A stretch of DNA of 63,753 bases from an uncultured Bacilli bacterium (GTDB lineage: Bacteria; Bacillota_I; Bacilli_A; RF39; UBA660), in the NCBI GenBank assembly GCA_947629255.1, contig CANRDF010000003.1, forward strand, positions 1 through 63,753. Direction: 5' to 3'. Made by a program: the position numbers and the translations under genes. This document shows, piece after piece, positions 1,406 through 40,267 of the stretch. Below the pieces are notes generated by a model, which saw nothing but the letters and a program-made list of their open reading frames with translations, did not search any database and was not told the origin of the DNA. Positions within the stretch are counted from its first letter, which is position 1. The number at the start of each line of letters is the position of its first letter.

Positions 1406-2542
1406 TCATAACTTTCTTTTCTCTTCTTTTTTAAAAGATTTTAAGAATTGATTTGTGAGTTCTTTAATATACTCTACTTTTTTTAATTTACGAATCCATT
1501 TATCAGGAATATTTTTCATTCCATAAATAATTCCATTCATCGACCCTGTAATAGCTCCGATAGTATCTGTATCACTTCCTAAATTAATTGATTTTAAAAC
1601 GGCTTCTTCATAACTTTGACTTTGAAGTGTACTCCAAAGAGCAGCCTCCAAAGAAGAAACAACATATCCATTCGACTGAATCTCATCTTTAGATAGAGAT
1701 ATGAAATCTGATTTTAAAATTCGATTAAAATTTCTGACTGTTTCCATAGAATAATATTTCTCATAAGGAATTTTCTTAAGATTTTGATACGCTTCAAGTG
1801 GATACTGGCCATCAAGCAAAAATTTCACATAATCGCAATAAATTTTACAAGCCAAACAACTAATTTCATGTCCATGAGTCAAAGAAGAGAATTGATTTAC
1901 AAGATTCACTTCTTCTTGAAAAGAAAAATCTTGTTTTTTTAAATAATAAGCAACAGGGAACATTCTCATTAAAGAACCATTCCCATTATCTTTAATTTTT
2001 CTTCCCCCACAAGCGGTAGCAGGAAGATGTTTTTCAAAATTTTGAAGTGCTAAACAAGTCGTGATACCAATATCAAATACTTCATCAGTAGCCGTATACT
2101 TTCCTTTACGATACCAATCATCAAATCTTTGCATCATATCTTCAAAAGAAATGGAAGGTTCGGTCAAAATGGAATCCATCGTTGCAAGCACCAAAGAAGT
2201 ATCATCACTCCAAGTTCCTTCCGGCACCAAATGAGTCCCAAAGGACAGCATATCTTGAACAGGATGTGCTTCTAAAGTATTTCGAGCTTGAAACTCAACT
2301 GGAACTCCCAACGCATCTCCAATAGCAAATCCAATCATACCTGCTTGATATTTGTTTTCCATATCTTCTTCTATAGAAGAATGATCTTTTGTAATAGGAG
2401 GAAGTCCCATTTGTTTTAAAAGTTCATTTCTTTTTTGAATTAATTTTTGTACATCCATTTTAATTTCTTCTTCTGTTTTATCACTCGTATGAATGGTAAA
2501 CTGAACATCTGGAATTTTACTCTCTCGACTCATCTTAATCAC
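1406..2542 (-). CDS. ADP-ribosylglycohydrolase (ARH/DraG-like), candidate immunity protein for the upstream ART toxin
   Basis: Motifs 'GFAIGDALGVPVEF', 'WSDDTSL' and 'GSDTDTIGAITG' are typical of the ADP-ribosylglycohydrolase family. The gene begins about 10-20 nt after the toxin stop (GTG at 2542 or ATG at 2533). Confidence 0.85.
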   Translation of the reverse strand: MIKMSRESKIPDVQFTIHTSDKTEEEIKMDVQKLIQKRNELLKQMGLPPITKDHSSIEEDMENKYQAGMIGFAIGDALGVPVEFQARNTLEAHPVQDMLSFGTHLVPEGTWSDDTSLVLATMDSILTEPSISFEDMMQRFDDWYRKGKYTATDEVFDIGITTCLALQNFEKHLPATACGGRKIKDNGNGSLMRMFPVAYYLKKQDFSFQEEVNLVNQFSSLTHGHEISCLACKIYCDYVKFLLDGQYPLEAYQNLKKIPYEKYYSMETVRNFNRILKSDFISLSKDEIQSNGYVVSSLEAALWSTLQSQSYEEAVLKSINLGSDTDTIGAITGSMNGIIYGMKNIPDKWIRKLKKVEYIKELTNQFLKSFKKEEKRKL

Positions 2543-2552
2543 TTCCTTTCAT

Positions 2553-5500
2553 TTATTCTATTATACACTGAATAATAATTTTTCTCAAACCATTTACATC
2601 TTCTGTAGGAGGAAAAACTTTTACCATTTTAAGAGTAGTATTTTTCGCCAATAAAAATTCATTTTCTGAATTATAAAATTCTGATAATTGATTAATATAA
2701 GCTCCCTGTGTTCCTTTATCCGCAATAATATCTAACACAATTGGATAACCTATATCTTTAGCAAAAGAAGTAGAATAACATGGAGATGTACTCATATATC
2801 CTAAATCTCCAAAAGTACAACCTTCTAACACAGAAAGTGTAGCATAAACTTGATTTAAATCGTTTGTATCCACACCCTCAAAAAGTTCAGCATAAGCGGA
2901 ATTCTGTTTAAGAAAAGACCCTACTGTAACACCTCTAAAAAGTTCAGTTGCAACTTCAAGTCCACCATATTTTTGAATTGCACTATCAATCGCATCAACT
3001 GTCTTTTGATTTGCAGAATTTAAATATTTTATACGTAAGGCTTGATTAATTGTATTAAATCCTCCACCTGTATAATATGCTAAAGCTTGAATCTCATCTT
3101 TATTCAACTGTTTAAGAAATTTTCCTTCAATAGTAGATAAAAAATCAATATATTTTTCCTTATCTATACTACTTCTCAAATTTTTATAAACTTCATTACT
3201 AGTCTTCCCTTTTTTAAATAATTCACAAACCACATTTCCAGCATCACCATAATACTTACCCATTTCATTACGTCCTTCAAAACTTTTTAAAGAAAAACGT
3301 TTATATTCTTGTGGGATTTCTTTATTTGATTTAGATTTATATTGCATAATTTTTGCAAAATTAAAATTATTTTTTTCTATGATTCGATCAAGAATATTTT
3401 TTAAGTTTACTTTAGGATCTGAAGAATCCTGACTAGCATTCATCGCGTCTAAAACATAATTTGGAAAATCAAAATATTTTAAAGAGCCCAAATAACCTTC
3501 TAATTCATTTATTGCATAACTTAAAAATTCAAAACCATCATCTTTAATATCACCTTTTTTTATAACTTGTTCTATTAAATACTTTTTCCAAGGTTGATCT
3601 CCATTTTTTTCATAAAACTGAATAACTTCGCACATTTCATGAAGAGTTTTATATTTACTTAAAAATTGATCATCCATTGGAGCATCTTGTGTTTTAAACC
3701 GTTGATAAATTTTTAAATCTTCCATAGATGTATTATAAAGTAAAGCATATTTTTCATTAGGCTTCATATTTTCTTTAATCAGTGGAATGGTATCATCAAT
3801 TAATTGAGAATTATTTGATGTCAAAAATTGTTTCAAAGCCGCTTGTAAATTTTGATGACTTTGATTTAATTGAGCATAAAAGGAAATAGAATCACCTTCT
3901 GCGATTTGAACTTTCAAAGGAAGCTCATCCAAAGAATATGTTCCATTCTTTTTTATTTGATCCAAAATACCTGTACTAACGTTTTCATTTTTTAAATTTT
4001 CAGAAATGGTCAAATAAAGATTATCTAATTCTTTTTGAATTTTTGGTAATCTTAAATTTTGAATTAATTGTTCAATTTGAGGTAACCTTGAAGCATTAGA
4101 AGCAATGTTCTCTACAGAAAGGTATGGAGTAATTTGATCTATTTGAATTTGATTTAATATTTGAACAAAAGCGTTCGGATCTTCCACTTGATCATATATT
4201 TGATAAATAGAATTCAAATCATTCTGACTTACACTCTCTAAATTAGAATAATTATATAACTCATAACGTCCTCCCAACTTCTGCATCATTTCATTAGAAA
4301 AGAAATAATCTGCCGAACCACCAGAAGATCTATGAAGCAAATCTAATGCTAATTCAGAATTTGCCTGATAAACCGTCACAAAATTTTGTATCACATCATT
4401 ACTACTACCACCAAAATAATGCATTCCTACTTTTGAAAGAATTTCATAATTTTGAGGAGAAAACAATTCAGTAGCAAAATTTTCTTCTAAAGAAATATCG
4501 GTTGTATTAAATAGATAGTTTTTAAAATTATTAAGATATCCATCAGGAAGTTCCTGAAATAAATTCGAAGCAGAAGAAACCAATTTTATTTTTTTCTCCA
4601 TACGATCAACAGAATCCATAGAACTTGGAACTTTGACTTTCGATTGATTTTTTGCCATTGCACTAGATGCCTCAATAATTTCTTTAGCAGTAGATTTATT
4701 ATTTTGATAAATTTCATAATATGGATGATTTTCTTCTTTTGTTTCAAAGGAAGCCCTTGTATGAAATTGTAATTCAAATTCAACCCCTTCAGGAGTAACA
4801 ATTTGAGTATTAATTCCTTGATAAGTTGTTTGACCCCAAGAATTTTTAAAATACGGAACACTACATCCTTGTTTCATCAAAGAAGTAAGAATACGATTGA
4901 CTTCACTAGCATATTGATTATCATCAATTTGAAAAGTATATCTTAAAGCATCATTCATAGTCTTTCCTACTTCAGTATAACTACAGTCTGTTGCATTTGC
5001 ATATTTCTGTATTTTCTGTATAAGTCTATCAATAGATTTAAATTTATGCTCTAATCCAACTAATTGAGTATCTGAAGATTCAAAAGTTTGAAGTAATTTA
5101 GTAATAGGAGGTTCTTTTAAAACTGCATCTTCATGCACATCCCATGCTGCTTGTGCTAATTCTTGTCCATATATTTTCTTAAACTGTTGAAGCTCTCGCT
5201 CACGAATATTAGAGAATTGATCATTAGAAACATCTTCTTCGAAAGACGCATTTTCTAGAATAGAATGTACTTCAGAAATATTCGCATGTGCTTCTTCTAC
5301 ATTTGCATTAGAAAAAACTTGAAGCAATTTTTGTAATCGTTTCTTAGAATATGACCAATCAGAAGCTAAACCAATAATCACAGATTCAGCTTTTCGTAAA
5401 GCAGAAGAAATTTTATTAGAAGAAGCATTTGTTTTATAATTTTCATACTCTCCCTTACTGATTTCTTTATAAACCAATTGGCCATTTTCTTCTGTAAGTC

Positions 5501-8495
5501 CGAAATAAACAACAGAATAGTTTCCTTCATCTAATATATAATTTCCATCATAAGAGACAGCTTCATCCACTAAATCTCTATAACGAAACTGACTAAGTTC
5601 TTCAGGTGAAACATTTATTTTAATTGCTATTTGTTTTTCCGATAAGTTTCCTGTATTCATAGCCAAATCAGAAATATTAGGAATACCTGCAAAGAAAAAA
5701 CTTTTTTTATTTCCATAAGAGCTTACATAATCCGAAGCTTTTATGTATCCAGATTCTTGAATTTTCTGTATATTACTTTCATTTGTAAAATGATACAATC
5801 CTTCTTTTAATATTTTTTGAGAAAAACTAGAAGAATTGGTAACTGGAACATATCGAAAAAAGAAGGGAGCACTTGTAAAAGAAGTCAATGTACTAGCAAC
5901 AGCTTTAGGTAAGGAAGATAAAGCATTTTTACCAAGCATCATTTTAACATTAGAGTTTTCCGTAATCGTCTGTTCCATGGAAGAAAGGTTATTCACACCA
6001 GCAAAAGCAGGTTCTAATTCTTGAACAGGTCCAAAATTTAAATAAGAAATATTATCTTTGATTTGATCAATTTTAGCATTCAATGAACTTTTAGAATTTT
6101 TAAGTAGATTCCCCAATAAAGTACTAACACCTGAAGAAGTAACATTTTTACCATTTGCATTTACAAGACTAAGCGTAACTTCTTTTAAAGGTTTACTATA
6201 TTCTTGCATAATTTCGTTAAAATTCATGGAAGCTGTTTCAGGCAATAATTCATGAAAACTATTTTCTATCTCAGTCGTTGTTACATTCCCAGCTCTCACC
6301 TGTTCTTCAATTGTCCGAATACTACTACTATTAATAGCCAAACTAGGTATATTCATGATTCCACCAGTAATCCCACCATAAATTCCAGATTGTAAAGCAT
6401 CTTTAGTAGTACTTACAAAATCAAAATCTTTTTTTAAAATGAGACTACTGGCCCCTGCATCTACATAACTTTGAATAAATTCTTCTTGAAATTCTTTTCC
6501 CATTGCTTGAGCCATAGTCTTCAAATTTACAACTTTTGTTTCACTTATAAGAGGCATTGCTCCTAATGCTTTTTCTAACAGAACTTCACTCGCACCACTT
6601 AAAGCACCATATGCCATGGATTCTCCTCTACTATAACCTTCTGTCATCGCACTATGATAAGAACCTCCAGCAGCACTTGTACCAAGGAACATCGTACCAG
6701 CAAAAGGATTGATTGCACTAAGTCCAATACTTGGAAGCATGTTTCCTATAGATTCGCTAATTTGATAATTATGTTCTGTAAATTTACCATAATCTTTTGT
6801 ATAATCAATAATATCTGATGTACTGATTTCTTCTCCTAACGAATTTCTCGTAACAAGTCCTTGATCAAATTTTGTTTTATCACTAGATAAAGCTTGAACA
6901 ATATACATGTTTTCATATTCTTGAGTACTTATTTCTCTGTTTTCTTTAAAAAAACCTTCTATCATATACCCCAAATTATTAAAAACACCTGTAATTCCTT
7001 CTCCAAGTCCCTTTCCCGTAATCTTTAAATGATTAGTAACTGCAGAAGCTCTATTTGCTTCATCTAAAGAAGTCAAAGTATTTAAAAATTCATTTGCTTG
7101 AACTTCTCCACAAAATTGATGAATTTCATTTTTATAATCTTCTAAATATTGAGTAGCAGCTTGAGCTCCAAAATTTTGATAAGCAAAAGAATAATATTTT
7201 CCCATATCTTTTAAACTATCCACACTTTGAATCTTAGCTAATTCTTTTAATAATTCACCGTTTGTAACTCCTTCTATTGTTACATCATCACCATATATTT
7301 CAATTGCCTTTTTTGTAAAAGTTAGTGGATCCACATCTTTATGCATTTCTGCATACTTAGAATAGTTAGCTACTGTATAAGACTGCACGATATTCTGGTC
7401 ATTTTGTACCACAGTAGAAACAGAGGAAACATCATCTTTAGATATATCTTTGATTTTAAAATTTTGATACTCTTTTGTTTTACTCATAACTGTATATTGA
7501 ATTCCCTTAGCTGCAGACTCTATTTGCTGTTTTTCATTACTAACTTCATATAATCTCTTTTGAGCATCTGTTATCTTTTCTATAAATGTATCAAAATTTC
7601 CATACTCTGTATCTTCAAACATGGAATCATATCTTTTATAAACATTATCTATGGAAGAATCTTTCTCTAATAATATTTGACTAATTTCATCCACAGATTT
7701 ATTCTTAAATTCTTCTCTACTCATTCCTAACCATTCAAAATAATCGTCACTTAAAGCATCAACTTCATCTTTAGACTGCATAGCAAGCCCTCTTGCCTCA
7801 CGAGCTGCACTTTCTTTCATTTCATTGATTTTGTCTAAATCAAAATCCACTCCTGTCATTTTAGAAAAAAATTGATTTAATTCATCATATTCTTTGGAAC
7901 AGGCCTCATATTTTTCATTTACTGTTTTTATATCTTTATTATACATATTTGTTAAACTACTACTTATTTTATAAACTTCTGTTGCATTTAATTCTTCTCC
8001 ATTAAAATACTTATTTAATAATACATTTTTTTGTTCCTGTTTCATCATTATTTGAGAAGCTATCATCGTTTGTAAAGTAAAACTAGAATTTCCAAAAGTA
8101 TTAGAAGAAGATACTCCAAAACGAGAATTATAAGAAATAATAGATAATTTTCCTGATAATGCCATTTTTGTAAAAGTTAATGTAGAAAATTTCCCAGTAG
8201 TATAAGTAGATAAAGAAGAATTCAAAAAGCTATAATGGTTTTGTGATAATACTTTTTCAACTGCATGAATATCATTTAAATAATCCTTCCACCATTTTTC
8301 AATTTTAGTATAAGAAGTTAAAATATTTTGAAATTGCTCATTTAATCTACTTCTCATTAAAGAAACATAAACATTAGAAGAACTTCCAATATAAGATGAA
8401 TCAAAACCATACTTTTTAATATTTTTTAAATTTTCAGAAGCACTTACAAAGTTATTATAATTATTTTCAAATGTTTTTAAATTTATTAACTTCAT
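2553..8495 (-). CDS. 1980-aa multidomain polymorphic toxin, putative T7SS substrate, with a C-terminal ADP-ribosyltransferase domain
   Basis: Single uninterrupted ORF directly downstream of essC, a yukD-like gene and WXG-like genes. It has a helical N-terminal region, Gly/Ala-rich hydrophobic segments (aa ~585-720), an RSH-like segment (aa ~1140-1265) and a C-terminal R-S-E ART signature. Confidence 0.85.
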   Translation of the reverse strand: MKLINLKTFENNYNNFVSASENLKNIKKYGFDSSYIGSSSNVYVSLMRSRLNEQFQNILTSYTKIEKWWKDYLNDIHAVEKVLSQNHYSFLNSSLSTYTTGKFSTLTFTKMALSGKLSIISYNSRFGVSSSNTFGNSSFTLQTMIASQIMMKQEQKNVLLNKYFNGEELNATEVYKISSSLTNMYNKDIKTVNEKYEACSKEYDELNQFFSKMTGVDFDLDKINEMKESAAREARGLAMQSKDEVDALSDDYFEWLGMSREEFKNKSVDEISQILLEKDSSIDNVYKRYDSMFEDTEYGNFDTFIEKITDAQKRLYEVSNEKQQIESAAKGIQYTVMSKTKEYQNFKIKDISKDDVSSVSTVVQNDQNIVQSYTVANYSKYAEMHKDVDPLTFTKKAIEIYGDDVTIEGVTNGELLKELAKIQSVDSLKDMGKYYSFAYQNFGAQAATQYLEDYKNEIHQFCGEVQANEFLNTLTSLDEANRASAVTNHLKITGKGLGEGITGVFNNLGYMIEGFFKENREISTQEYENMYIVQALSSDKTKFDQGLVTRNSLGEEISTSDIIDYTKDYGKFTEHNYQISESIGNMLPSIGLSAINPFAGTMFLGTSAAGGSYHSAMTEGYSRGESMAYGALSGASEVLLEKALGAMPLISETKVVNLKTMAQAMGKEFQEEFIQSYVDAGASSLILKKDFDFVSTTKDALQSGIYGGITGGIMNIPSLAINSSSIRTIEEQVRAGNVTTTEIENSFHELLPETASMNFNEIMQEYSKPLKEVTLSLVNANGKNVTSSGVSTLLGNLLKNSKSSLNAKIDQIKDNISYLNFGPVQELEPAFAGVNNLSSMEQTITENSNVKMMLGKNALSSLPKAVASTLTSFTSAPFFFRYVPVTNSSSFSQKILKEGLYHFTNESNIQKIQESGYIKASDYVSSYGNKKSFFFAGIPNISDLAMNTGNLSEKQIAIKINVSPEELSQFRYRDLVDEAVSYDGNYILDEGNYSVVYFGLTEENGQLVYKEISKGEYENYKTNASSNKISSALRKAESVIIGLASDWSYSKKRLQKLLQVFSNANVEEAHANISEVHSILENASFEEDVSNDQFSNIRERELQQFKKIYGQELAQAAWDVHEDAVLKEPPITKLLQTFESSDTQLVGLEHKFKSIDRLIQKIQKYANATDCSYTEVGKTMNDALRYTFQIDDNQYASEVNRILTSLMKQGCSVPYFKNSWGQTTYQGINTQIVTPEGVEFELQFHTRASFETKEENHPYYEIYQNNKSTAKEIIEASSAMAKNQSKVKVPSSMDSVDRMEKKIKLVSSASNLFQELPDGYLNNFKNYLFNTTDISLEENFATELFSPQNYEILSKVGMHYFGGSSNDVIQNFVTVYQANSELALDLLHRSSGGSADYFFSNEMMQKLGGRYELYNYSNLESVSQNDLNSIYQIYDQVEDPNAFVQILNQIQIDQITPYLSVENIASNASRLPQIEQLIQNLRLPKIQKELDNLYLTISENLKNENVSTGILDQIKKNGTYSLDELPLKVQIAEGDSISFYAQLNQSHQNLQAALKQFLTSNNSQLIDDTIPLIKENMKPNEKYALLYNTSMEDLKIYQRFKTQDAPMDDQFLSKYKTLHEMCEVIQFYEKNGDQPWKKYLIEQVIKKGDIKDDGFEFLSYAINELEGYLGSLKYFDFPNYVLDAMNASQDSSDPKVNLKNILDRIIEKNNFNFAKIMQYKSKSNKEIPQEYKRFSLKSFEGRNEMGKYYGDAGNVVCELFKKGKTSNEVYKNLRSSIDKEKYIDFLSTIEGKFLKQLNKDEIQALAYYTGGGFNTINQALRIKYLNSANQKTVDAIDSAIQKYGGLEVATELFRGVTVGSFLKQNSAYAELFEGVDTNDLNQVYATLSVLEGCTFGDLGYMSTSPCYSTSFAKDIGYPIVLDIIADKGTQGAYINQLSEFYNSENEFLLAKNTTLKMVKVFPPTEDVNGLRKIIIQCIIE
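2556..3113 (-). other. C-terminal ADP-ribosyltransferase toxin domain (C3/VIP2-like R-S-E type), aa ~1795-1980
   Basis: 'YYTGGGFNTINQALR', then 'ELFRGV' (Arg1854), 'GYMSTSP' (S-T-S at 1902-1904) and 'NSENEFLL' (E-x-E at 1944-1946). Confidence 0.8.
4701..5078 (-). other. possible RelA/SpoT-homologue (RSH / toxSAS-like) nucleotide pyrophosphokinase segment, aa ~1140-1265
   Basis: The order 'EHKFKSIDRLIQKIQK' .. 'NDALRYTFQI' .. 'YQGINTQI' .. 'VEFELQFHT' .. 'HPYYEIY' mimics the RSH synthetase motifs (R/KxKxxxSxxxK, DxxGxR, YxxxH, ExQxRT, HxxYK). This is pattern recognition only. Confidence 0.4.
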
Positions 8496-8512: not shown

Positions 8513-8905
8513 TTAAATACTTTCATCAATGCTTATTTTTAACTCTTTTCTTTCTTTTTCATATGCTGTAATAGACCTTTGCAATGAACTAATAAAAGAA
8601 TAATCAGGCTCTTCTTTACTATTCTCATTAGAAATAGATCGTTCTAATTTAGTAATTTTATTTCCTAAATCTTGATAACGACCAATTTTATCAGCAATAA
8701 AATTATAATTCTGTATTAATTCTTCTAAATCTTTATATTTTGAAAGAAGGATATGAATAGCAGATATTAAATTTTCTTTTGCATTTGTTTCCAAAATTGT
8801 TGAATTATTAAGATCTTTTAATATATCTTCTTCTTTCGTAGTAGAAAGAGATTCACTAAGAGTTTTTAAACATGCTTTTAATGTTAATACATCAACGTCA
8901 TCCAT
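8513..8905 (-). CDS. small helical protein upstream of the toxin (candidate chaperone/targeting partner)
   Basis: ORF 8513..8950 trimmed to Met16 (MDDVDVL), which has a GAAGGTGG RBS. The sequence looks all-helical. Its start overlaps the stop of the upstream gene by 8 nt, indicating operon coupling. Confidence 0.55.
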   Translation of the reverse strand: MDDVDVLTLKACLKTLSESLSTTKEEDILKDLNNSTILETNAKENLISAIHILLSKYKDLEELIQNYNFIADKIGRYQDLGNKITKLERSISNENSKEEPDYSFISSLQRSITAYEKERKELKISIDESI

Positions 8906-9200
8906 GAAAACCACCTTCAAATAAACTAGCCATTTTTTTCTCAGCAGCATTATGATTATCTATAACTCCTGACACATAGGAACATAACTCAGTCATTGCC
9001 ATTTGCAAATCAGGAATATTTTTTAACAAAGAAGAATACCTTTGTTTTACGTAAGAAGCACCTGCTCCCTCCCAATAAATATTTTCATTCAATTTTTTTT
9101 CGCAACTTTCTAAAACCGTTATAATTGCTTCCACCCTAGTTTTTAATTTTTTATACTCTAACAAAGCATTTTCAACATTTTCATATTGAAATAAGTCCAT
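8898..9200 (-). CDS. WXG100-like small helical protein (100 aa)
   Basis: It is 100 aa long with a central 'YWEGAGASY' W-x-G hairpin motif and lies in a T7SS context. Confidence 0.65.
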   Translation of the reverse strand: MDLFQYENVENALLEYKKLKTRVEAIITVLESCEKKLNENIYWEGAGASYVKQRYSSLLKNIPDLQMAMTELCSYVSGVIDNHNAAEKKMASLFEGGFHG

Positions 9201-9209: not shown

Positions 9210-9512
9210 CTACAATTCTATTTTTTGAGATTGATATTCTGAATCAAGCTTATTATATAAAGAAACAGCATTCTGAATATAATCTGCAATTTCTTGTAGC
9301 TCTGAAGCCATAAGTTCAATACTATGAACATAAGAATCGTTTTCTACTAAAAGAGTAGAAACAAAATGAGTATAGCTTTCTCCTTGCCAAGAAGAGGCTA
9401 AAGACCGTGTAATATTAGAAAGACTTTTACAAACATCTTTCATATTATCTGATTGTTTGGAAATCATTGCACTTAACTCTAAAAGTTTTTCCTCATCTAC
9501 TTTGATATTCAT
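9210..9512 (-). CDS. WXG100-like small helical protein (100 aa)
   Basis: It is 100 aa long with a central 'SWQGESY' W-x-G motif and lies in a T7SS context. Confidence 0.7.
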   Translation of the reverse strand: MNIKVDEEKLLELSAMISKQSDNMKDVCKSLSNITRSLASSWQGESYTHFVSTLLVENDSYVHSIELMASELQEIADYIQNAVSLYNKLDSEYQSQKIEL

Positions 9513-9544: not shown

Positions 9545-9805
9545 TTAAAAGAAAATCAACCTTTTCCCATTTTTTAAGCCAGACTCTTTCACTGATACTT
9601 CTGGATCATAAAAAATATTTTGTTCACAATCATATAACGCATTTTGAAGGTCTAAAGGAAACACATCATTACTTATTTCATGAATAGAACGAGCAATCAT
9701 ACAAATAACATCTACAATTTTTTTGTTTGGTGGTAAAAATACTTCAAATTCTTGATCTAACTTAATAACATAAATGGAAACAAAAATTTTATTCATTTTC
9801 TTCAC
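9545..9805 (-). CDS. esaB: EsaB/YukD-like ubiquitin-fold T7SS protein
   Basis: It is 86 aa long and overlaps the essC stop by 17 nt. Size and position match EsaB/YukD. The sequence call itself is weak. Confidence 0.55.
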   Translation of the reverse strand: MKKMNKIFVSIYVIKLDQEFEVFLPPNKKIVDVICMIARSIHEISNDVFPLDLQNALYDCEQNIFYDPEVSVKESGLKNGKRLIFF

Positions 9806-12800
9806 CTTCTAACAATTTAACTAAAGTTGGACTACCATTACGAACCACATAACCATATTCTAATGAAATTTCATCGTAACAATATTTCGGTGTCTTTGAT
9901 AGTTTCAAAACAAATTGATCTGTAATTCCATTTCCAACCCATATACCTTGATTATTCATAACATAGTCTCGATACCAAGATTCCATTTCATACTTTTTAA
10001 GAACATAGCTAGCATCGAAAAGAACAAGATTAAATTTTTCTAAATCATGGCCAATTTGTAACATATGTTCAAAGTCTTCTTTCCGTTTTTTAATAATTTC
10101 TAAGAATTCTTCTATACCATACACAACCAAAGTTAAATGAGTATATTTTTCTTTTCGAGCTTCATCTTTTTGATTAGATTCATAATCTTTCTCTAATTTT
10201 TCTAAATAGTCATACGCATATTGAAAAACATCTTGAATTTTTTTAGTATAGTAATATTTAGTATGAACCTTTTTTGCATCTAAATGAGCCTCACTATCAA
10301 GAACGAATACAGAGTGATTTGATAAATGCTCAAAAGAATCTATAAGTCCATAAGTAAAAGATTGCAGAGATTCGAACTCCTGAGCAGTAACAATTTGAAT
10401 AAGCCGGGATTGAAAATTGAAACGCGCGAGCTCAAGAGTATCTTTAGCAACTCCTACCACAAGTTGATCTAGCGTATTATATGGAACAGAAAGACTTGAA
10501 TAATAAACATTGTCAGGTAAAACAGGAATTCTTTTTGCATATGTTTTATAATACTGTTTTAATTTCAAACACAAATTAGGAACCACTTCAACAACTTTCT
10601 CTTTTTCACAAATATGGGCAGTTTGAAATTCATAAACTTCCCCTCGAATTCGAGTAATCCCTCGTCCAAATTTTTTAGAAGGATAATTTTTTTGAACATT
10701 TCCCAAAATATTTGCATATTCATCTTCATTATTAAGTTGTAAAGAATAAATAGACTTAAAGTTTTGAAATAATTTAATTCTTACACTATTAGAATTAAGA
10801 ACACTAATCAAAAAGTAAATCCCATATTTTGTCGCTTCTCTAGTAATAGAAACAAGTTCTTCTTCAAAATTTTCAAATAATTCTTTAAAGTTCTCGTAAT
10901 TATTTAGGATAACTACAATATTAGGTTCTTTTTTTTCATTCTTAGCATTGTAACTTTCAAACGTTCCTCCAAAATTCATAAATTTAGATTTACGAATTTG
11001 AATTATCTCATTTAACATTTTAAATAAATTAGTCACTTTCTCTGTATCGGATGAAAAAACAACATCTCCAACATGAGGAGCATCAAGAAACATTTTTAAG
11101 GTTTCTGCCCCAAAATCCATAATATAAAATTGAATTTCATCTGGAGTATGATGCAATATCGAAGAAGTAATAAAGGTAGTAATAAAGTTTTCTTTCCCAC
11201 TTCCACTTGCACCATATAATAAAACATTACCTTCCTTTGTCATTGGAAGAGTAAGTAATGCTTGACTTTGCGTAGACGGTGAATCATACTCTCCAATAAT
11301 TTCATCAATAATATATGGCAAACTTTTATAATGATATTTCTTTTCTAATTCTGTCGTCGTAATAAATTCTGGAATAGGAGGCAACCACAAAGGTTCTATT
11401 TGAATTTGCTCTTTCTGAGCCAAATCAGAAATATACTTTAAAACAGCTGGAAGTTCTTCTCCTTTAAAACTCGCTTTTGCAGTTGCATCTTCTTGTTCCA
11501 CTGTTTTAATAATCTTACCAACATTGTCCACAAAATCAATAGATGAATCTATTTTTGCTTTTCTTTCTTTCATCTCATAATATGGAGCTCCTGTCCAAGC
11601 AGATTGTCCCATAGCAAAGAACTCATTATATCCAACTTGTAAATAAAACCGACCAACTGTTGATAAAGAAGCAGCATCAGGCACTTTAATCATATCCATA
11701 CTATCACTACGATCTTGAACCTTTAAACATACCCGAAATTTAGAATTGCTCCATATTTGAGCATCCACAACACCACTAGGTTTTTGAGTAGCCAAAATTA
11801 AATGGACTCCTAATGATCTTCCGATTCTCGCTGTAGATATCAGTTGGGTCATAAATTCAGGTTGTTGACTTTTAAGTTCAGCAAATTCATCACTAATAAT
11901 GAAAAGATGCGGAATTGGCGTTTTTACAAGTCCTTGATGATAAAGTTTCTGATATTTATAAATATTAATAGTACTTTCATTTGTTTGTTCCCTTGCTTCG
12001 TTAAATAGCCTTTGTCTTCTTTTTAATTCACTCTCAATAGATGCTAAACTTCTTTTAATTTCGACTGTATCTAAATTCGTGATCGTACCAGCTAAATGTG
12101 GAAGTTTAATACCAAGCTCTTTATTTTCAAATGCACCAGCAAGTCCACCACCTTTATAATCGATTAATACAAAAGAAACATCATCTGGATGATAATTTAA
12201 AGCCATTGATAAAATATAGGTAATAATAAATTCAGATTTACCAGAACCAGTCATACCAGCTACTAATCCATGGGGCCCATGAGCCTTTTCATGTAAATCC
12301 AAAACAAACAAACCACCATTTTGATTAATACCAACTGGAGCCTGTAAAGTTTCATAAGAATGATTGGTCTTCCAACGATTCAAAGCATTTAATTGTTCCA
12401 CATTTCCTACATTATACATTTCCAAAAAACTTACATTATCAGGAATACTTCCCTGTTTTTTCGTAAATTCAATAGGTATATTGCAAATTGCTTGAAAAAT
12501 TGGATTCAATGAAACATTCAAAAATTCAGCTTGAAAAACTTGTTGTCGATCGGTTGCAAGTTCATTTTCAATCATACCAGATTGATTGGCATCTACATTA
12601 ATAAAAGAATTACATTCATTAGGAAGCCCCATTAATCTTTGATTAATAATAAGAAAACTAAAACCATAATTTACTTTTGATTTTAATACATTTTTGACAA
12701 AATCAAAATCTCGAATACTTTCAAAATTATCTGTAATAATCACATAATAAGGCAAAAAGTTTGTATAATCTTTATTGTTAAGTTTGCCACTATCTTGATC

Positions 12801-14351
12801 AATAAAACGATTTTCGAATTCTTCATTTAACTTAGCACAGACAGAAAAAATCTCCTCTTTTGTCTCTCCATAATACCGAAATGTTCTTTCATTATTCCAT
12901 AAATAAGGAAGTTTTTTTAAATTTTTCCATTTATAGCTCGAGTCTTTATCAGTAAGAATCACAAATTTTACATCTTCATAACTATGGAAAGCAATAAATT
13001 GTAACAATATAGTATTTAAAAAAGACGGAATTAATTCAAAATTTCCTAAAATTGCACAAACATTTTTTTGAACAAAAGACACATTGATAGGAACATTTTT
13101 TAACATTCTTGGCTCTTTCGTCATTTGAAATACTTCTTTTCTTAAATTATCATTATCTAAAGAAAAATGTTCCTCAGGAAAATTCACTTTAATTTTTGCT
13201 GGAATTTCTCCAATCCCAATATGAGCCGTTAAAAAGTCATCGTGATCTATCTTTCTCTCCCAGAGATTTCTTCGATGATGAAGTATAATATCCATACATT
13301 GTTCTAGAGAAACGCTATTAGCATTTAAAGATTGTTGTTGTTCTTCTATAATTCGATAAATTTCTTGTTTTTTCATCGCTAAATATTCCATATATTTTTC
13401 CTGACGTAATTGTTCATTTTTTAAAGTTTGCTTTTTTTGATAACGTCTAGTCAAAATAGGAATACAAAGCATACCAACTAACATAGAAGAACCAAGAACT
13501 ATACCTGGTAAAGAATTTCTAAGTGTAGTTTCACCTCGAAAAACACCGCTAAGGGAAAGAAATAATGTCACCATCGAACTCATTCCCATAGTTAACATAG
13601 ATCCCATTTGAAGTAAAAAAGGAAGTTCTTCTTTTACCCCACTAGTTGGAGGAGCATCAATAGTTATGGATACTTCTGATATCACATTTCGAAATCTTGG
13701 AGAACGATAAAAATAATCTTTTTTTTCATAAATACTTTCAATATCTAATTGATTATCAACTGATTCTTTTAAAGTAGGAATAGGAAGACTTGTAATTTGT
13801 GACTGAACAATTTTTCTCTTATCATTAGGATTATCAATTGCAAAATAAGAACCAAGTACATAAATATTTAAGCCATTTATAAAAATATGATCTCCAGATT
13901 CCAACAACTTTCCTGATGTTAATATTTGATTAACATATACAGGATTCTGAGCATTACTACATTGCATAATCCAAGAATTATTTTTTTTAGCAAATAAAAC
14001 TTTGTCTTGATAATCACTATAAACGATATCAGCATCAGAATTTCCTACGCTAAATTTATCTAAAGATTGAAATAAAAAAATTTCTAAAGTAGAATTATAC
14101 AATGGTAACGTATATAAAACAACATTTTTATTTTTATAAGATACAGAATAAAAATGAAAAAACTCTAAAATAATTTTTTCTGATTGTTGATTCAAATATA
14201 CCCAATGTCCATCTGACGCAAAAATATTCAAAATATTTTTTTTGACTTCTGATTCATCATAAGCTTGTACCCAATAATTTCCATCTATGACATTTGGTAA
14301 GGAGTAGATTTGATAGGAATTTGCTGATTCAAAAAAAATTAGTAATTTCAT
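9789..14351 (-). CDS. essC: T7SS FtsK/SpoIIIE-family ATPase EssC
   Basis: It is 1520 aa with an N-terminal FHA-like region and two TM segments (aa ~240-300). The P-loops are 'GMTGSGKSEF' and 'GASGSGKENF', and 'FIISDEFAEL' is a Walker B. Confidence 0.92.
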   Translation of the reverse strand: MKLLIFFESANSYQIYSLPNVIDGNYWVQAYDESEVKKNILNIFASDGHWVYLNQQSEKIILEFFHFYSVSYKNKNVVLYTLPLYNSTLEIFLFQSLDKFSVGNSDADIVYSDYQDKVLFAKKNNSWIMQCSNAQNPVYVNQILTSGKLLESGDHIFINGLNIYVLGSYFAIDNPNDKRKIVQSQITSLPIPTLKESVDNQLDIESIYEKKDYFYRSPRFRNVISEVSITIDAPPTSGVKEELPFLLQMGSMLTMGMSSMVTLFLSLSGVFRGETTLRNSLPGIVLGSSMLVGMLCIPILTRRYQKKQTLKNEQLRQEKYMEYLAMKKQEIYRIIEEQQQSLNANSVSLEQCMDIILHHRRNLWERKIDHDDFLTAHIGIGEIPAKIKVNFPEEHFSLDNDNLRKEVFQMTKEPRMLKNVPINVSFVQKNVCAILGNFELIPSFLNTILLQFIAFHSYEDVKFVILTDKDSSYKWKNLKKLPYLWNNERTFRYYGETKEEIFSVCAKLNEEFENRFIDQDSGKLNNKDYTNFLPYYVIITDNFESIRDFDFVKNVLKSKVNYGFSFLIINQRLMGLPNECNSFINVDANQSGMIENELATDRQQVFQAEFLNVSLNPIFQAICNIPIEFTKKQGSIPDNVSFLEMYNVGNVEQLNALNRWKTNHSYETLQAPVGINQNGGLFVLDLHEKAHGPHGLVAGMTGSGKSEFIITYILSMALNYHPDDVSFVLIDYKGGGLAGAFENKELGIKLPHLAGTITNLDTVEIKRSLASIESELKRRQRLFNEAREQTNESTINIYKYQKLYHQGLVKTPIPHLFIISDEFAELKSQQPEFMTQLISTARIGRSLGVHLILATQKPSGVVDAQIWSNSKFRVCLKVQDRSDSMDMIKVPDAASLSTVGRFYLQVGYNEFFAMGQSAWTGAPYYEMKERKAKIDSSIDFVDNVGKIIKTVEQEDATAKASFKGEELPAVLKYISDLAQKEQIQIEPLWLPPIPEFITTTELEKKYHYKSLPYIIDEIIGEYDSPSTQSQALLTLPMTKEGNVLLYGASGSGKENFITTFITSSILHHTPDEIQFYIMDFGAETLKMFLDAPHVGDVVFSSDTEKVTNLFKMLNEIIQIRKSKFMNFGGTFESYNAKNEKKEPNIVVILNNYENFKELFENFEEELVSITREATKYGIYFLISVLNSNSVRIKLFQNFKSIYSLQLNNEDEYANILGNVQKNYPSKKFGRGITRIRGEVYEFQTAHICEKEKVVEVVPNLCLKLKQYYKTYAKRIPVLPDNVYYSSLSVPYNTLDQLVVGVAKDTLELARFNFQSRLIQIVTAQEFESLQSFTYGLIDSFEHLSNHSVFVLDSEAHLDAKKVHTKYYYTKKIQDVFQYAYDYLEKLEKDYESNQKDEARKEKYTHLTLVVYGIEEFLEIIKKRKEDFEHMLQIGHDLEKFNLVLFDASYVLKKYEMESWYRDYVMNNQGIWVGNGITDQFVLKLSKTPKYCYDEISLEYGYVVRNGSPTLVKLLEGEENE

Positions 14352-14413: not shown

Positions 14414-14436
14414 AAATAACCTTTGAAAGGTTATCT
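14414..14436. repeat. target-site duplication, left copy (AAATAACCTTTGAAAGGTTATCT)
   Basis: An identical 23-mer recurs at 16104..16126, immediately outside the IS inverted repeats. The 23-mer itself contains the hairpin ATAACCTTT/AAAGGTTAT. Confidence 0.85.
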
Positions 14437-15944
14437 CAGATTGTTGACAAAAGCGGTATATTCAAAAAGAGTATATCTCTTTTTTTCATATTTTGAAAAA
14501 AAATTGTTAATTTTGAAAAAATCAGTGAAATAATGGCCTTTTTTGGATGACTTTTCCATCTCCAATTTGCCATTTTCTTTAAATTATGACATGCAAAAAT
14601 CATCGTGGAATTCTGTTCATTTTTGAGTAATCCACGAACTCTAGTAAATCGAAGACCATGTTGTTCCTTACAATCTCCAAATGTTCTTTCGATTGTTTCT
14701 TTTCGTAAAGGATAATTTTCTTTCCAAAGTTTGGTGTATCTCATTTCATTGGCTTGTTCTTTATACTCTTCCCATATATGTCGAGTGACTACTTTTTGAC
14801 AGTTTTTACTTTTGGTACATCGTTCTCTGAATGGACAATCTTTACATTTCTCTGGATCTGATTTATATTGCTTATATCCTTTTTTATCTGTTGTTGTATA
14901 CGTTAATATTTCATTATTTGGACAAATATAACAATCGTAATATTCATCATATACATATTCATTTTTTTTAAATAAGCCTTTTCCTGTCATTGGTCTTTTA
15001 TATGGCATTAAGGGAATGTGACCTGACAAAATGATTTCTCTACATATCGCTGGATTGATATATCCTGCATCTAAACAAACATTTTTTATTTGATCTTTAT
15101 ATTTCTGATTTAAAAGATGATATGCTTTAAAAAATGCTACACTGTCATGTATGTTTCCTGCTGTTGTCGTTTTTGCTAATACAAATCCATTTTTATCACA
15201 AAACGTTTGATGAGTATAAGCAAAACATTTTTCTTTTTCTCCTTTATGATAACATCCACTTTCTGGATCAGTTATACTTTCTTTAATGTGTTTTGTTTCT
15301 ATGTTTTCAATCACTTCTCCTGTTTCTTCATCAAACATGATTTCTGTCTTTTCTATATTTTTAAGTGGCTTTTTCCCATTCTTTTCTCTATCTTCATTGA
15401 TTTCTTTTAACATGGCATCTTCATATACTTTTTTTACGATTTCTACTTCTACATCTTTGTGTTTATTCTTATTTGCATTTGCTTTTTGATGTGTTCCATC
15501 TCCGAATACGGTTTCCATATCTATAAATCCATATTCCATCGCTTGATTTAAAATCTTATCAAATATTTCATTAAACACATCACTGTCTTTATATCTTCTT
15601 ATATAATTTTGACTCCATGTTGAATAATTTGGAATATCATCATATATTGATAATCCTAAAAACCATCGATAAGCTATATTTACCTTACATTCTTCACATG
15701 TTCTTCTCATGGAATTGATTCCAAATATAATATTTATAAAGATGAGCTTAAATAGTACGACTGGTGGAACACTTGGTCTTCCTCCTATACTGTATAAATC
15801 TTTTACTAGATCTTCTATAAATCTAAAATCCATACAGTGATCTAATTTCCTTACTAAATGCTCCTTGGGTACTAATTCTTCTATCGTACTTAATATTATA
15901 CAATCATTTTTATGTATTTGTTTGGTCATTGCCATTTGCTTCAA
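14436..15944 (-). CDS. DDE transposase (IS1182-like, InsH-type N-terminus)
   Basis: 'LVPKEHLVRKLD', 'GRPSVPPVVLFKL..YRWFLGL', a Cys-rich 'CKDCPFRERC' and the C-terminal 'ERTFGDCKEQHGLRFTRVRGL..NLKKMA'. The last base of the TGA stop comes from the flanking target DNA. Confidence 0.85.
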   Translation of the reverse strand: MKQMAMTKQIHKNDCIILSTIEELVPKEHLVRKLDHCMDFRFIEDLVKDLYSIGGRPSVPPVVLFKLIFINIIFGINSMRRTCEECKVNIAYRWFLGLSIYDDIPNYSTWSQNYIRRYKDSDVFNEIFDKILNQAMEYGFIDMETVFGDGTHQKANANKNKHKDVEVEIVKKVYEDAMLKEINEDREKNGKKPLKNIEKTEIMFDEETGEVIENIETKHIKESITDPESGCYHKGEKEKCFAYTHQTFCDKNGFVLAKTTTAGNIHDSVAFFKAYHLLNQKYKDQIKNVCLDAGYINPAICREIILSGHIPLMPYKRPMTGKGLFKKNEYVYDEYYDCYICPNNEILTYTTTDKKGYKQYKSDPEKCKDCPFRERCTKSKNCQKVVTRHIWEEYKEQANEMRYTKLWKENYPLRKETIERTFGDCKEQHGLRFTRVRGLLKNEQNSTMIFACHNLKKMANWRWKSHPKKAIISLIFSKLTIFFQNMKKRDILFLNIPLLSTI

Positions 15945-16103: not shown

Positions 16104-16126
16104 AAATAACCTTTGAAAGGTTATCT
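16104..16126. repeat. target-site duplication, right copy
   Basis: Identical to 14414..14436. It overlaps the stop codon of the tandem-WXG gene by 1 nt. Confidence 0.85.
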
Positions 16127-16788
16127 TAAGCTCCTCTATCTGCACTTTGAGCTGCCATAGCAGCAGCATTAATGTTGCTAATACAAATATCTAAATTACT
16201 ATATATTTTTGTCATATTCGTATCAGCAGTATTTGTTAAAGTATTTTTAGCAGATTCTGCTGCATCACCATCCCAAATACCTTCCCCACTATTTAACCGA
16301 TTAATAGTAGTTAATAAATTTACTTTAACTCCATCTAATTTTTCTTTGATTTGTTTCAAAGAAGTACCAATGTTACTGATAACTTCATAATCATAAGTAA
16401 CAATTTCCTTATTAATGTTTTCAGCAGCCATTTGACTTAATTGATTAAAACTCAATTCTCCAAAAGATTGAGATACATTGGTATCAAAACCCAAATTAGA
16501 AACTTCTAGCCCAGCTACACTTTTTGCTACTTCATTCATAGTTTGAGCAAAAGCATCTCCAAACTCATTAGAAAAAGCAACTAAAGCATTATGAGTTTCC
16601 ATAAAATTTTGATAGTTTTGATATGCAGCTGCTCCAGTCCAAACTTGAGGTTTAACAAGTTCTGACACTAATTCATTAAATTTTCTAACACAACTTGCAA
16701 CACTATCTTCTTCCCCACTAATAATTTTGATTAAACTATTAGACCAATTTTTTACTGAATCAGGATTGTAAACAAAAGCCATACTCAT
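16126..16788 (-). CDS. tandem (fused) WXG100-family protein, EsxA-like, 220 aa
   Basis: Two W-x-G hairpin motifs occur in one chain: 'VWTGAAAY' (aa ~49) and 'IWDGDAAE' (aa ~163). The C-terminal 'YSNLD' fits the YxxxD/E pattern. Confidence 0.75.
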   Translation of the reverse strand: MSMAFVYNPDSVKNWSNSLIKIISGEEDSVASCVRKFNELVSELVKPQVWTGAAAYQNYQNFMETHNALVAFSNEFGDAFAQTMNEVAKSVAGLEVSNLGFDTNVSQSFGELSFNQLSQMAAENINKEIVTYDYEVISNIGTSLKQIKEKLDGVKVNLLTTINRLNSGEGIWDGDAAESAKNTLTNTADTNMTKIYSNLDICISNINAAAMAAQSADRGA

Positions 16789-32329: not shown

Positions 32330-32340
32330 ACAAAACCTCC

Positions 32341-35356
<3,016 letters not shown>

Positions 35357-35424
35357 ATTATTGCCCCTTAAACCTCATTTATAGAAAAAGAATAGGTACA
35401 TTAATACTCCTATACCTAAATTAA

Positions 35425-35904
35425 TTATAACATATTATTTTCCATTTTAAAACGATTTTTTACATTTTTTCGTACTCTCAAAGCACTTTCCAAACGTGTA
35501 GAACGAAGAACTTGATTATCCAAAACACCATAGGAAGAAGATAGTATTAAACTCTTGTTATTTTTAAATAAAATTTCCACTCCCCCATACCCTCTTCGGT
35601 ATTCCAAAATATGATTTAAACTTATCCACACCGTATCTTGTTTTCGAATAGATGTCATTGGAAAAAAGATCATTTCATTTGACTCTTCCACAATGATAGG
35701 AGCCTTATATTTTACTCCAATAATTTCTTCTGTCCCTTTTTTTCTTCCTTCCAAACTACTTCCATAATAACGACAACTATGTTCAATAATATTAGTTGTT
35801 GAATCACGTACTAAAAAGTCCCCATGAACTTCGTACACTTGAGTAATGTTATCTTCAATAGGAATTAAAGCAAGTGTATCAATATTAATTTCATATTCTT
35901 TCAT
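35425..35904 (-). CDS. comK: ComK-family competence transcription factor
   Basis: 'IIEHSCRYYGSSLEGRKKGTEEI..YKAPIIVEESNEMIFFPMTS..VWISLNHI' aligns with B. subtilis ComK 'IVDRSCRFFGSSYAGRKAGT..HKPPIMVDPSNQIFLFPTLS..GWISHVHV'. Confidence 0.8.
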   Translation of the reverse strand: MKEYEINIDTLALIPIEDNITQVYEVHGDFLVRDSTTNIIEHSCRYYGSSLEGRKKGTEEIIGVKYKAPIIVEESNEMIFFPMTSIRKQDTVWISLNHILEYRRGYGGVEILFKNNKSLILSSSYGVLDNQVLRSTRLESALRVRKNVKNRFKMENNML

Positions 35905-35957
35905 GATAATTCCTCCTCCAAAAAAATGAAATTGACTCTAGAATAACATATAAGGAG

Positions 35958-35974
35958 GGTCGAAATTTGTCGAA
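35958..35974 (+). promoter_or_regulatory. tandem Spo0A-box pair (GGTCGAA-N3-TGTCGAA) upstream of the comK-like gene
   Basis: It reads GGTCGAAATTTGTCGAA, with two 7-mers at a 10-bp register, 54-70 nt upstream of the start codon. Confidence 0.5.
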
Positions 35975-36076
35975 AAAAGGAAGAACTAAACAAAATTTTC
36001 AAAAAATAAAAAGAAAATGCACTTTTAAACACATTTTCCTATAACTATTTATATATTATTTACTAATAAATCACTA

Positions 36077-37198: not shown

Positions 37199-37347
37199 TT
37201 TTTTTTCCTTCTTTCTTTTTATATTTATATATTCATATTATTAATACGGTGGATAACGTGGATAACTTTTACAACTACCCATGATACCGTACTCTTTTGT
37301 CGAATTTTGTCGTGGATAACTTTCCACATCTTTAAAGATTATTCACA
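37199..37347. other. oriC sub-region (dnaA-dnaN intergenic, incC-like): DnaA boxes plus an AT-rich unwinding candidate
   Basis: Reverse-orientation DnaA boxes are GGTGGATAA (37248..37256), CGTGGATAA (37257..37265) and CGTGGATAA (37311..37319), each 8/9. Forward 8/9 boxes are CTTTCCACA (37320..37328) and TTATTCACA (37339..37347). The tandem boxes abut an AT-rich tract at 37199..37247. Confidence 0.8.
37298..37314 (+). promoter_or_regulatory. tandem Spo0A-box pair (TGTCGAA-N3-TGTCGTG) inside oriC, overlapping a DnaA box
   Basis: It reads TGTCGAATTTTGTCGTG. The second box overlaps the DnaA box at 37311..37319. Confidence 0.5.
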
Positions 37348-39090: not shown

Positions 39091-39095
39091 AGTTA

Positions 39096-39314: not shown

Positions 39315-39353
39315 AACTAAATCCTTTCTTTTTCAAATTATTAATATTATAAT

Positions 39354-40199: not shown

Positions 40200-40250
40200 C
40201 TCAAGTGATTATTCTTACATAGGTATGAAAGAAATTCAAGCGAAGGTTTT

Positions 40251-40267
40251 GTCGAATTTTGTCGAAG
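40251..40267 (+). promoter_or_regulatory. perfect tandem Spo0A-box pair (TGTCGAA-N3-TGTCGAA) upstream of the Rpn-like gene
   Basis: It reads TGTCGAATTTTGTCGAA, 52-68 nt upstream of the start at 40199. Confidence 0.55.

Follow-up and report, generated by a model that had tools for sequence, protein, structure and literature searches.

The locus described here raises the question of what a very large toxin, encoded next to type VII secretion system (T7SS) genes in an uncultured gut bacterium, would deliver into a target cell, and how the producing cell would be protected from it. The locus is contained in contig CANRDF010000003.1 of assembly GCA_947629255.1, a stretch of 63,753 nucleotides which was analysed as a whole and is referred to as the window. 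The stretch is chromosomal and derives from a low-GC gut bacterium (Bacilli metagenome-assembled genomes (MAGs), several of them from rabbit gut). All genes under study are located on the minus strand, and features are given by their positions in the window; related loci and proteins are designated by L and P numbers. The toxin gene at positions 2553-8495, including the stop codon, is preceded by an AAGGAGG ribosome-binding site and codes for a polypeptide of 1980 amino acids. A sequence-only reading of this region had described a T7SS-linked toxin ending in an ADP-ribosyltransferase (ART), paired with an ADP-ribosylglycohydrolase (ARH) as immunity protein. The analysis presented here makes it likely that the locus is a chromosomal T7SS toxin-immunity module of an uncultured gut bacterium, and it identified a second predicted warhead in the same polypeptide.

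The C-terminal region of the toxin (residues 1741-1980; positions 2556-3275) is, to judge from its sequence, an R-S-ExE ART of the C3/VIP2/C2/Certhrax family. Using the last 201 residues as a query, the Pfam family PF03496 (ADPrib_exo_Tox) was matched with 88.5 bits (E 4.6e-25; gathering score 23.4; profile positions 11-190 of 196). In a Pfam scan of the full-length protein of 1980 residues, the ART domain was not reported and was only seen when the C-terminus was scanned alone; scans of long proteins with a biased composition thus have to be read with care. The motifs YYTGGGFNTINQALR at residue 1807, ELFRGV at residue 1851 (with R1854), YMSTSP at residue 1900 (S1902-T1903-S1904), and ENEFLL at residue 1944 (E1944-N-E1946) place the catalytic arginine, the S-T-S segment and the (Q/E)-x-E segment in the correct order. 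When the domain is aligned to Certhrax and to a C3-like ART, the S-T-S and E-x-E/Q-x-E segments coincide. The chains in the PDB matched by the domain (phmmer, E<=0.01) were Certhrax, a C3-like ART, C3larvin, C2-I, ExoS/T, and SpvB, and no Tre1 chain was among these sequence matches. The R / S-T-S / E-x-E signature is typical of arginine-specific transferases. Together, the E-x-E motif and the DraG/Tri1-type partner encoded downstream point to arginine as the acceptor residue.

The domain is 53-54% identical to the C-terminal toxin ends in L002-6, which stem from the human gut ('Clostridium sp. CAG:417'-like contigs) and from a related MAG, and it matches the toxin of L009 with an E-value of 1.7e-70. 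Two of the proteins found in these loci, P0045 (303 amino acids, in many human-gut contigs; L002 4393-6912) and P0046 (227 amino acids; L006 2733-6684), are C-terminal fragments of much larger toxins, with genes broken by runs of N in the scaffolds.

Immediately downstream of the toxin gene, the open reading frame (ORF) for the ARH was identified at positions 1406-2542. Read from a GTG at 2542, it starts 10 nucleotides past the end of the toxin gene and codes for 378 amino acids; read from an ATG at 2533, it starts 19 nucleotides past the toxin gene and codes for 375. The ATG is more probably the start because of its better spacing to the ribosome-binding site, and the homologue in L007 has been called at 373 amino acids. 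The catalytic domain (positions 1409-2347) is predicted to be a DraG/Tri1-type ADP-ribosylarginine hydrolase-like 'eraser' immunity protein, based on matches in Pfam and the PDB. PF03747 was matched with 223 bits (E 7.7e-66; threshold 26.2; profile positions 2-286 of 287), and the motifs GDALGVPVEF, SDDTSL and GSDTDTIGAITG were found. The shorter elements VEF, SDDT, FDIG, and DTDT are present, and we take the first three to correspond to the E-D-D residues of DraG. For DraG and Tri1, the E-D-D catalytic and metal-binding residues have been described (PMC8120803). The nearest solved chains are those of Lmo0067 (8za7; E 8.5e-68) and Tri1 (6dre; E 3.2e-41). Against the NCBIfam equivalog model for Tri1, NF041672, the ARH scored 186 bits with a cut-off of 490; it is related to Tri1 and is not a Tri1 orthologue.

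The first 62 residues of the ARH (positions 2348-2533) form an N-terminal module, which is a candidate element for binding or occluding the ART. In L002-5, L006, and L009, a separate gene for 68-70 amino acids is located between the genes for the ART and the ARH, and its product is homologous to the first ~60 residues of the ARH from the window (BLASTP of the ARH N-terminus against these small proteins: E 4e-10 for L002, 2e-8 for L006, and 6e-7 for L009). The fusion of module and hydrolase is also present in L007, and it is considered to be real and not an assembly error because it occurs in two independent assemblies, the window and L007. For Tri1, a dual mode of immunity was demonstrated, in which an N-terminal extension occludes Tre1 and the hydrolase domain reverses the modification (PMC8120803). 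By analogy, we propose that the N-terminal module of the ARH would bind to the ART and block it.

The ART and the ARH were found to co-vary. The ART subtype is present in five distinct loci (window/L007, L002-5, L006, L009), and in every one of them the ARH gene is located downstream of the ART. Where a toxin of this family has no ART (L001/L020, L008, L010, L014, L017), the ARH is missing as well. In L012, a distant ART is accompanied only by a gene for 60 amino acids. This tracking of the ART by the ARH, in presence and in absence, is the pattern expected of a cognate immunity gene.

A comparison of the toxin with its relatives revealed a polymorphic architecture. A homologue search with the full-length protein returned only four proteins owing to saturation of the word filter, and relatives were collected by domain-wise searches and by one exhaustive search with residues 1-1080, which gave 683 representative clusters at E<=1e-3. 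Residues 1-1075 are the conserved delivery part, consisting of an N-terminal helical domain and two modules designated modA and modB, and residues ~1076-1980 are exchangeable cargo. The protein P0003 from MAG GCA_947626215.1 (locus L001) is 57% identical over residues 1-1075 and unrelated beyond; its locus contains the same upstream genes, and a gene for 52 amino acids replaces the ARH gene and a gene for 73 amino acids that follows it in the window. With a shared N-terminal part, a break at about residue 1075, a swapped C-terminal cargo, immunity genes differing between the window/L007 and L001, and the co-variation of ART and ARH, the protein has the features by which polymorphic toxins are recognized. 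In P0003 (L001 10001-16117), about seven tandem acidic repeats of 22 residues, EDTLDLEEEGLPIRDSDQxTNL, were observed at residues ~1100-1250, starting shortly past the end of homology at about residue 1075.

Within the cargo, residues 1090-1314 (positions 4554-5228) were assigned as a RelA/SpoT-like SYNTH domain of the exported alarmone synthetase (EAS) type, based on Foldseek, phmmer, NCBIfam, and conserved motifs. The AlphaFold2 model of this domain has a predicted local distance difference test score (pLDDT) of 94. In Foldseek, the closest structure was SaEAS from Streptomyces albidoflavus (8vx3; E 2e-11; template-modelling score 0.68-0.76), followed by SAS1/RelQ, RelP, and the toxin Tas1 of a type VI secretion system (T6SS) at E<=1e-4; phmmer against 8vx3 gave an E-value of 5.7e-13. 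The toxin keeps the motifs that are invariant in the family, LVGLE..K, DA.RYTF, N.W..Y.GIN, and FELQFHT, including D1182 and, within FELQFHT, E1241. D1182 (in NDALRYTF) aligns with D121 of SaEAS, which is replaced by alanine in the crystallized inactive mutant (D121A). Homologues of the domain include 40 small proteins, some with a signal peptide and LysM, and one fused to a phage minor-capsid (MuF-like) domain. The EAS family was defined by Ahmad et al. 2025 (PMC12691689), and the T7SS-linked member AaEAS makes (p)ppGpp and is toxic. A match was also obtained for residues 1102-1297 to the C-terminal end of the XopAD/skwp model NF041399 (E 5.5e-29; 100 bits with a cut-off of 2000; profile positions 1929-2130 of 2133). 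Membership of the XopAD/skwp effectors was rejected, as the SKWP repeat body was not matched and the score was below the cut-off; a single domain is held in common.

By sequence, the cargo holds two recognizable enzymatic domains, the EAS domain at residues ~1090-1314 and the R-S-ExE ART at residues ~1741-1980. Among 194 proteins collected, only the toxin from the window and P0002 contain both. In other members of the toxin family, the EAS domain is C-terminal (P0081) or internal (P0115), and the ART is C-terminal (P0171) or located near the C-terminus (P0140). The region between the two domains (residues 1315-1740; 426 residues; positions 3276-4553) is an orphan, with no match in Pfam, the PDB, PHROGs, or PADLOC, and its sole homologue is contained in P0002, which is 89% identical.

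The gene following the ARH gene (positions 1172-1393) codes for a protein of 73 amino acids, which is a candidate immunity protein for the EAS domain based on co-occurrence and homology. It accompanies the combined EAS and ART cargo in the window and in L007, and it is missing from L001. The protein is homologous to the C-terminal half of a protein of 133 amino acids encoded directly downstream of the EAS toxin P0115 in L010/L011 (BLASTP E-values of 1e-4 and 3e-5, and 6e-4 for phmmer within the ORF set).

Most of the sequence-only reading is borne out by these results. The ordered ART motifs lie where it had located them, the C3/VIP2-type assignment agrees with the profile match and with Certhrax, C3larvin and C2-I as relatives in the PDB, the distance of about 10-20 nucleotides to the next gene is 10-19, and the product of that gene contains the three ARH motifs. 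Its link to a T7SS is in line with a context of EssC, WXG100 and DUF4176 genes that is conserved in the relatives, as described below. The proposed combination of an ART toxin with an eraser immunity is supported by the co-variation of the two genes; however, the EAS domain and the fused ~60-residue module of the ARH had been overlooked.

The relatives of the two enzymatic domains bear on the question of which cell is attacked. Among solved structures, the closest relatives of the ART (Certhrax, C3larvin, C2-I, ExoS/T, and SpvB) are host-directed toxins, plant pathogens have type III effectors of the XopAD type in which this EAS-like domain is also found, and the organism comes from animal guts. 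The toxin could on these grounds be directed against the animal host or against eukaryotes in the gut, with the ART modifying a eukaryotic target such as actin or Rho in the manner of C2-I, VIP2, C3, and Certhrax, and the ARH guarding the producer against stray activity. We consider this unlikely. A dedicated and strictly co-varying immunity gene implies a target in the cytoplasm of the producer itself, the scaffold belongs to a polymorphic toxin in which cargo and immunity cassettes are exchanged, and an alarmone synthetase has no obvious eukaryotic target. In addition, ARH immunity was found to be strictly tied to R-S-E ART polymorphic toxins of interbacterial conflict (Zhang et al., PMC3482391).

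A further question is which reaction the ART-fold domain would catalyse. ART-fold toxins of T6SSs which act as NAD(P) glycohydrolases have been described (PMC13285283); the ART of the window could accordingly be mainly an NAD+ glycohydrolase, or modify a nucleic acid, a small molecule or another non-protein substrate, and not be an arginine-specific protein ART. This is very unlikely, given that the full R / S-T-S / E-x-E signature is present, that the score is well over the threshold of the exoenzyme ART family, and that an obligatory DraG/Tri1-type hydrolase as a partner is only sensible with a reversible ADP-ribosyl adduct.

The conserved gene context points to a T7SS. Along the direction of transcription, the locus consists of the genes for a 220-residue double-WXG100-like protein, an insertion sequence (IS) transposase, EssC, an 86-residue protein, WXG100, a 100-residue protein with a W-E-G motif, a helical protein of ~130 residues, the toxin, the ARH, the 73-residue protein, DUF4176, and tatD. 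The toxin is thus flanked by EssC, WXG100, and DUF4176, and synteny of this kind was also identified in L001, L007, L009, L010, and L012 as well as in loci anchored on EssC. In L007, the locus from the window is present as a near-identical assembly, with a toxin that is 89% identical. The conserved linkage to EssC, WXG100, and DUF4176 is that of a T7SS substrate.

The motor of the system is an EssC-type FtsK/SpoIIIE ATPase of 1520 residues (positions 9789-14351; PF01580 E 1.7e-47, two matched stretches). Relatives of EssC were identified in 36 loci of uncultured Bacilli/Firmicutes MAGs, many from rabbit gut, with a top identity of 94%; no FHA match was obtained from Pfam in its first 317 residues. 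The WXG100 (EsxA-like) protein of 100 residues is encoded at positions 9210-9512 (PF06013 E 3.2e-8; TIGR03930 E 1.7e-8). The first gene of the cluster (positions 16126-16788) codes for the 220-residue protein with two WXG100-like halves, for which Pfam WXG100 was matched by residues 132-217 (E 1.2e-6) and TIGR03930 with an E-value of 3.6e-10. A gene for 218 amino acids occupies the same position beside essC in L001 and L007, and a WXG100 match, a faint one, was recorded only for the copy of L007. The DUF4176 protein (positions 809-1141; PF13780 E 1.4e-28) belongs to a chaperone family tied to T7SS toxins, and its role beside LXG toxins has been described (PMC13492133).

Three small genes between essC and the toxin gene were assigned from their position. 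The 86-residue protein (positions 9545-9805) occupies the position of EsaB/YukD and is a putative member of this group; its counterparts have 83-87 residues directly after essC in L001, L002-5, and L007, and 84 residues directly before essC in L009, and no match was obtained in Pfam, including YukD. The 100-residue helical protein with a W-E-G motif (positions 8898-9200) is a candidate co-secreted or targeting partner, with a gene for 98-100 amino acids at the same position in L001 and L007; no significant Pfam match was found, the Lap families included. The ~130-residue helical protein directly upstream of the toxin (positions 8513-8905), called at 130 residues in L001 and L007, is a candidate targeting factor by its position, and it also has no match in Pfam, including the Lap families.

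The N-terminal helical domain of the toxin (residues 1-250; positions 7746-8495) is presumed to be the T7SS-targeting module. A hidden Markov model (HMM) built from 20 N-termini of the family identified the domain in toxins of 400-2856 residues whose genes lie downstream of essC (L014-L017, L020, and L046), as well as in the toxin of L009, which is encoded upstream of essC. The finding that this domain heads toxins of varied size and cargo downstream of essC supports a targeting role. The second part of the delivery region, modA (residues 250-800; positions 6096-7748), is a glycine-rich conserved module that is behind most of the best 150 matches of the search with residues 1-1080. It has no match in Pfam, and no classical transmembrane segment was identified (maximal Kyte-Doolittle value 1.24).

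The third part, modB (residues 860-1075; positions 5271-5918), is a mobile domain, which was also identified in standalone proteins of 215-270 residues and within many giant proteins. Its conserved positions are H902, S926-Y927, K931, N947, R973, and D977, with the motifs GLYHxT and SYG..K.FF.G.P. A sub-threshold match to Tox-ART-HYD1 (PF15633) was obtained (20 bits with a cut-off of 25; profile positions 1-34 of 97), and a weak match is seen in six of eight members. The signature of Tox-ART-HYD1 is H / [RK] / [FY] / [DE], and modB keeps H902, K931, R973, and D977. A profile search of the PDB returned only noise (haemagglutinin coiled coils). It may be that modB is an ART-like domain of the HYD1 type.

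The T7SS cluster looks minimal, with a double-WXG protein, EssC, an 83-86-residue protein, WXG100, and two small helical proteins. The locus is bracketed by metG and tatD, and dnaA is located roughly 20-35 kb away. The chromosomal origin region is contained in the window at positions 29849-47992, where the minus strand carries gyrA, gyrB, recF, dnaN, and dnaA and the plus strand carries mnmE and mnmG; the sign of the GC skew switches near 42 kb. Between the gene for the 220-residue WXG protein and essC, an IS-type DDE transposase (DDE_Tnp_1_6 / DUF772) is encoded at positions 14436-15944. The insertion is probably recent, because it is absent from the otherwise syntenic L007, and it may affect the expression of essC.

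Besides the host-directed relatives of the ART, several findings weigh against the explanation as a T7SS toxin-immunity module or against parts of it. No genes for EssB, EsaA, or EssA were found in the 63.7-kb window or in the syntenic loci, which makes the secretion apparatus incomplete when measured against a T7SSb. The LXG family PF04740 was not matched by residues 1-300 of the toxin at E<=10, nor by the 20 N-termini of the family (the window and 19 relatives) at E<=0.1, and a profile of these N-termini found no solved LXG structure in the PDB. Membership of the LXG toxins was rejected on this basis; a more distant kinship is possible. An AlphaFold model of residues 1-1080, based on an alignment of four sequences, reached a pLDDT of 39. 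With no LXG match and a model of this quality, the assignment of a targeting role to the N-terminal domain rests on gene context. For the EAS domain, Pfam RelA_SpoT was not matched within residues 1080-1340 at E<=10, and the kinship is visible only via 8vx3 and the fold. For the ARH module, the match to the Tri1 chain begins at residue 59 of the query and residue 66 of the chain, which leaves the module outside of the alignment, with no sequence similarity to the extension of Tri1.

For the 73-residue protein, the homology comes from one independent locus with modest E-values. The EAS toxin P0081 in L008 has other neighbours, namely a gene for 180 amino acids and then a gene for a 158-residue HD_4-like protein (a weak match, E 7e-4; L008 7044-8046). 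The HD_4-like protein may be a small alarmone hydrolase acting as an enzymatic immunity protein, to go by its profile match. A comparison of the 73-residue protein with the 180-residue protein from L008 gave E-values of only ~0.04-0.1 and no recovery by jackhmmer, and it was not counted as support. The assignment of the 73-residue protein as the immunity protein for the EAS domain is therefore tentative, and we regard it as somewhat more doubtful than not.

The missing LXG match, the apparently incomplete set of T7SS genes, the IS element within the locus, and the fusion of EAS homologues to phage minor-capsid (MuF-like) and LysM domains could be taken to mean that the toxin is no T7SS substrate, is released or used in some other way (through a phage, a mobile element, or lysis, for example), and adjoins essC by coincidence. 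This is most improbable: toxins of the family adjoin essC in many independent genomes, mostly with WXG100-like genes or DUF4176, the toxins found at this position begin with a common N-terminal domain although they vary widely in size and cargo, the IS is missing from the syntenic L007, and no phage genes were found nearby. A function in anti-phage defence was rejected, with no match in PADLOC for the ART, the ARH, the 73-residue protein, modB, or the orphan region, and only PDC-S37 for the EAS domain (E 2e-4; 17 bits). A DraT/DraG-like housekeeping regulation was likewise rejected, the ART being polymorphic-toxin cargo and the ARH co-varying with it.

For the T7SS toxin-immunity module, we infer export, catalysis, target residue, target proteins, and protection as follows. 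Export of the toxin would be through EssC, jointly with the DUF4176 chaperone and the small WXG100-like proteins from the upstream genes. Once inside a rival bacterium, the ART would transfer ADP-ribose from NAD+ onto arginines of essential proteins, and the alarmone synthetase would produce (p)ppGpp or (p)ppApp in flooding amounts. The producer would be guarded by the products of the next two genes, the ARH and the 73-residue protein. As a DraG/Tri1-type ADP-ribosyl(arginine) hydrolase, the ARH would strip off the modification, its fused module of ~60 residues would probably bind and block the ART, and the 73-residue protein would probably neutralize the alarmone synthetase. A joint reading, which combines a bipartite modular ART immunity ('split versus fused' Tri1), a multi-warhead toxin (EAS, ART, and possibly a HYD1-like domain), one immunity gene per warhead, a minimal T7SS without EssB, EsaA, and EssA, and an N-terminal targeting domain without an LXG Pfam match, is conceivable and, in all its parts together, rather unlikely.

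What is noteworthy in this locus is the combination of an EAS and an ART cargo with two apparent immunity genes, the module which is fused here and split in relatives, and an N-terminus without an LXG match on a seemingly minimal T7SS. If each warhead has its own immunity gene, the presence of EAS and ART on one polypeptide would show how T7SS toxins stack mechanisms. With the module fused in some loci and separate in others, binding-based and enzymatic immunity become separable. A clean test pair is provided by this locus along with the related ones of 'Clostridium sp. CAG:417' from the human gut. An experimentally tested T7SS example of an ART toxin was not found in the literature. The system is not a new kind, because the concept has been established (Zhang et al. 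2012), and the gain is incremental, because the underlying principle dates back to 2012 and 2018.

Compared to the T7SSb LXG toxins (TelA-D, YeeF, and others) with Lap and DUF4176 proteins, the same order is present, with small helical proteins, a large toxin that is helical at its N-terminus and variable at its C-terminus, immunity genes, and DUF4176. In contrast to them, the toxin family of the window has no match to PF04740, the upstream proteins have none to the Lap families in Pfam, and EssB, EsaA, and EssA are not encoded nearby. An ART-type LXG toxin was reported to be abundant in gut metagenomes (Whitney et al. 2017), and a table of characterized LXG toxins from 2026, which covers Lactobacillales only, has no ART entry. 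The closest solved relative of the ARH is Lmo0067 from Listeria monocytogenes (8za7; 332 residues), which aligns from residue 69 of the ARH and leaves the module uncovered. The number of its locus tag places lmo0067 inside the T7SS hypervariable region lmo0061-lmo0075, beside lmo0066. Within this region, lmo0066 has been called an EsaD homologue (PMC5417603).

For the EAS toxins SaEAS and AaEAS (Ahmad et al., mBio 2025), residues 1090-1314 of the toxin from the window share the fold and the motifs of SaEAS, and T7SS-linked EAS toxins with a small downstream immunity ORF have been described (PMC12691689). Whereas the SYNTH domain is C-terminal in AaEAS, the EAS domain of the window is internal, with ~665 residues beyond it that end in the ART. 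Polymorphic toxins with several toxin domains are on record. Zhang, Aravind et al. 2012 (PMC3482391) listed Tox-ART-RSE domains for polymorphic toxins of the T7SS (WXG/LXG), Firmicutes among them, in which immunity is conferred by an ADP-ribosylglycohydrolase, and read the ARH as reversing the modification. The pair in the window is exactly of this predicted class, Tox-ART-RSE with Imm-ADP-RGHD, that work being a computational catalogue. The toxin of the window differs by its N-terminus without an LXG match and by the extra EAS domain, and the ARH differs by its fusion to a small module.

The sequence-only reading had also drawn an analogy to Tre1/Tri1 of the T6SS of Serratia proteamaculans, which holds in part. 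In both systems, an R-S-E ART is paired with an adjacent DraG-like ARH, which neutralizes the ART in the case of Tre1, and the ARH of the window, which matches 6dre, likewise has an extra segment N-terminal to the hydrolase. However, neither protein falls into the Tre1 or the Tri1 family. The pair of the window is located in a T7SS locus of a Gram-positive and not in a T6SS locus, its ART matches the C3/C2/Certhrax group and not Tre1, and its N-terminal module does not align to the extension of Tri1 and is a separate gene in relatives. With an ART that has no sequence match to Tre1 and an ARH below the cut-off for Tri1, the system of the window appears to work like Tre1/Tri1 and belongs to neither family.

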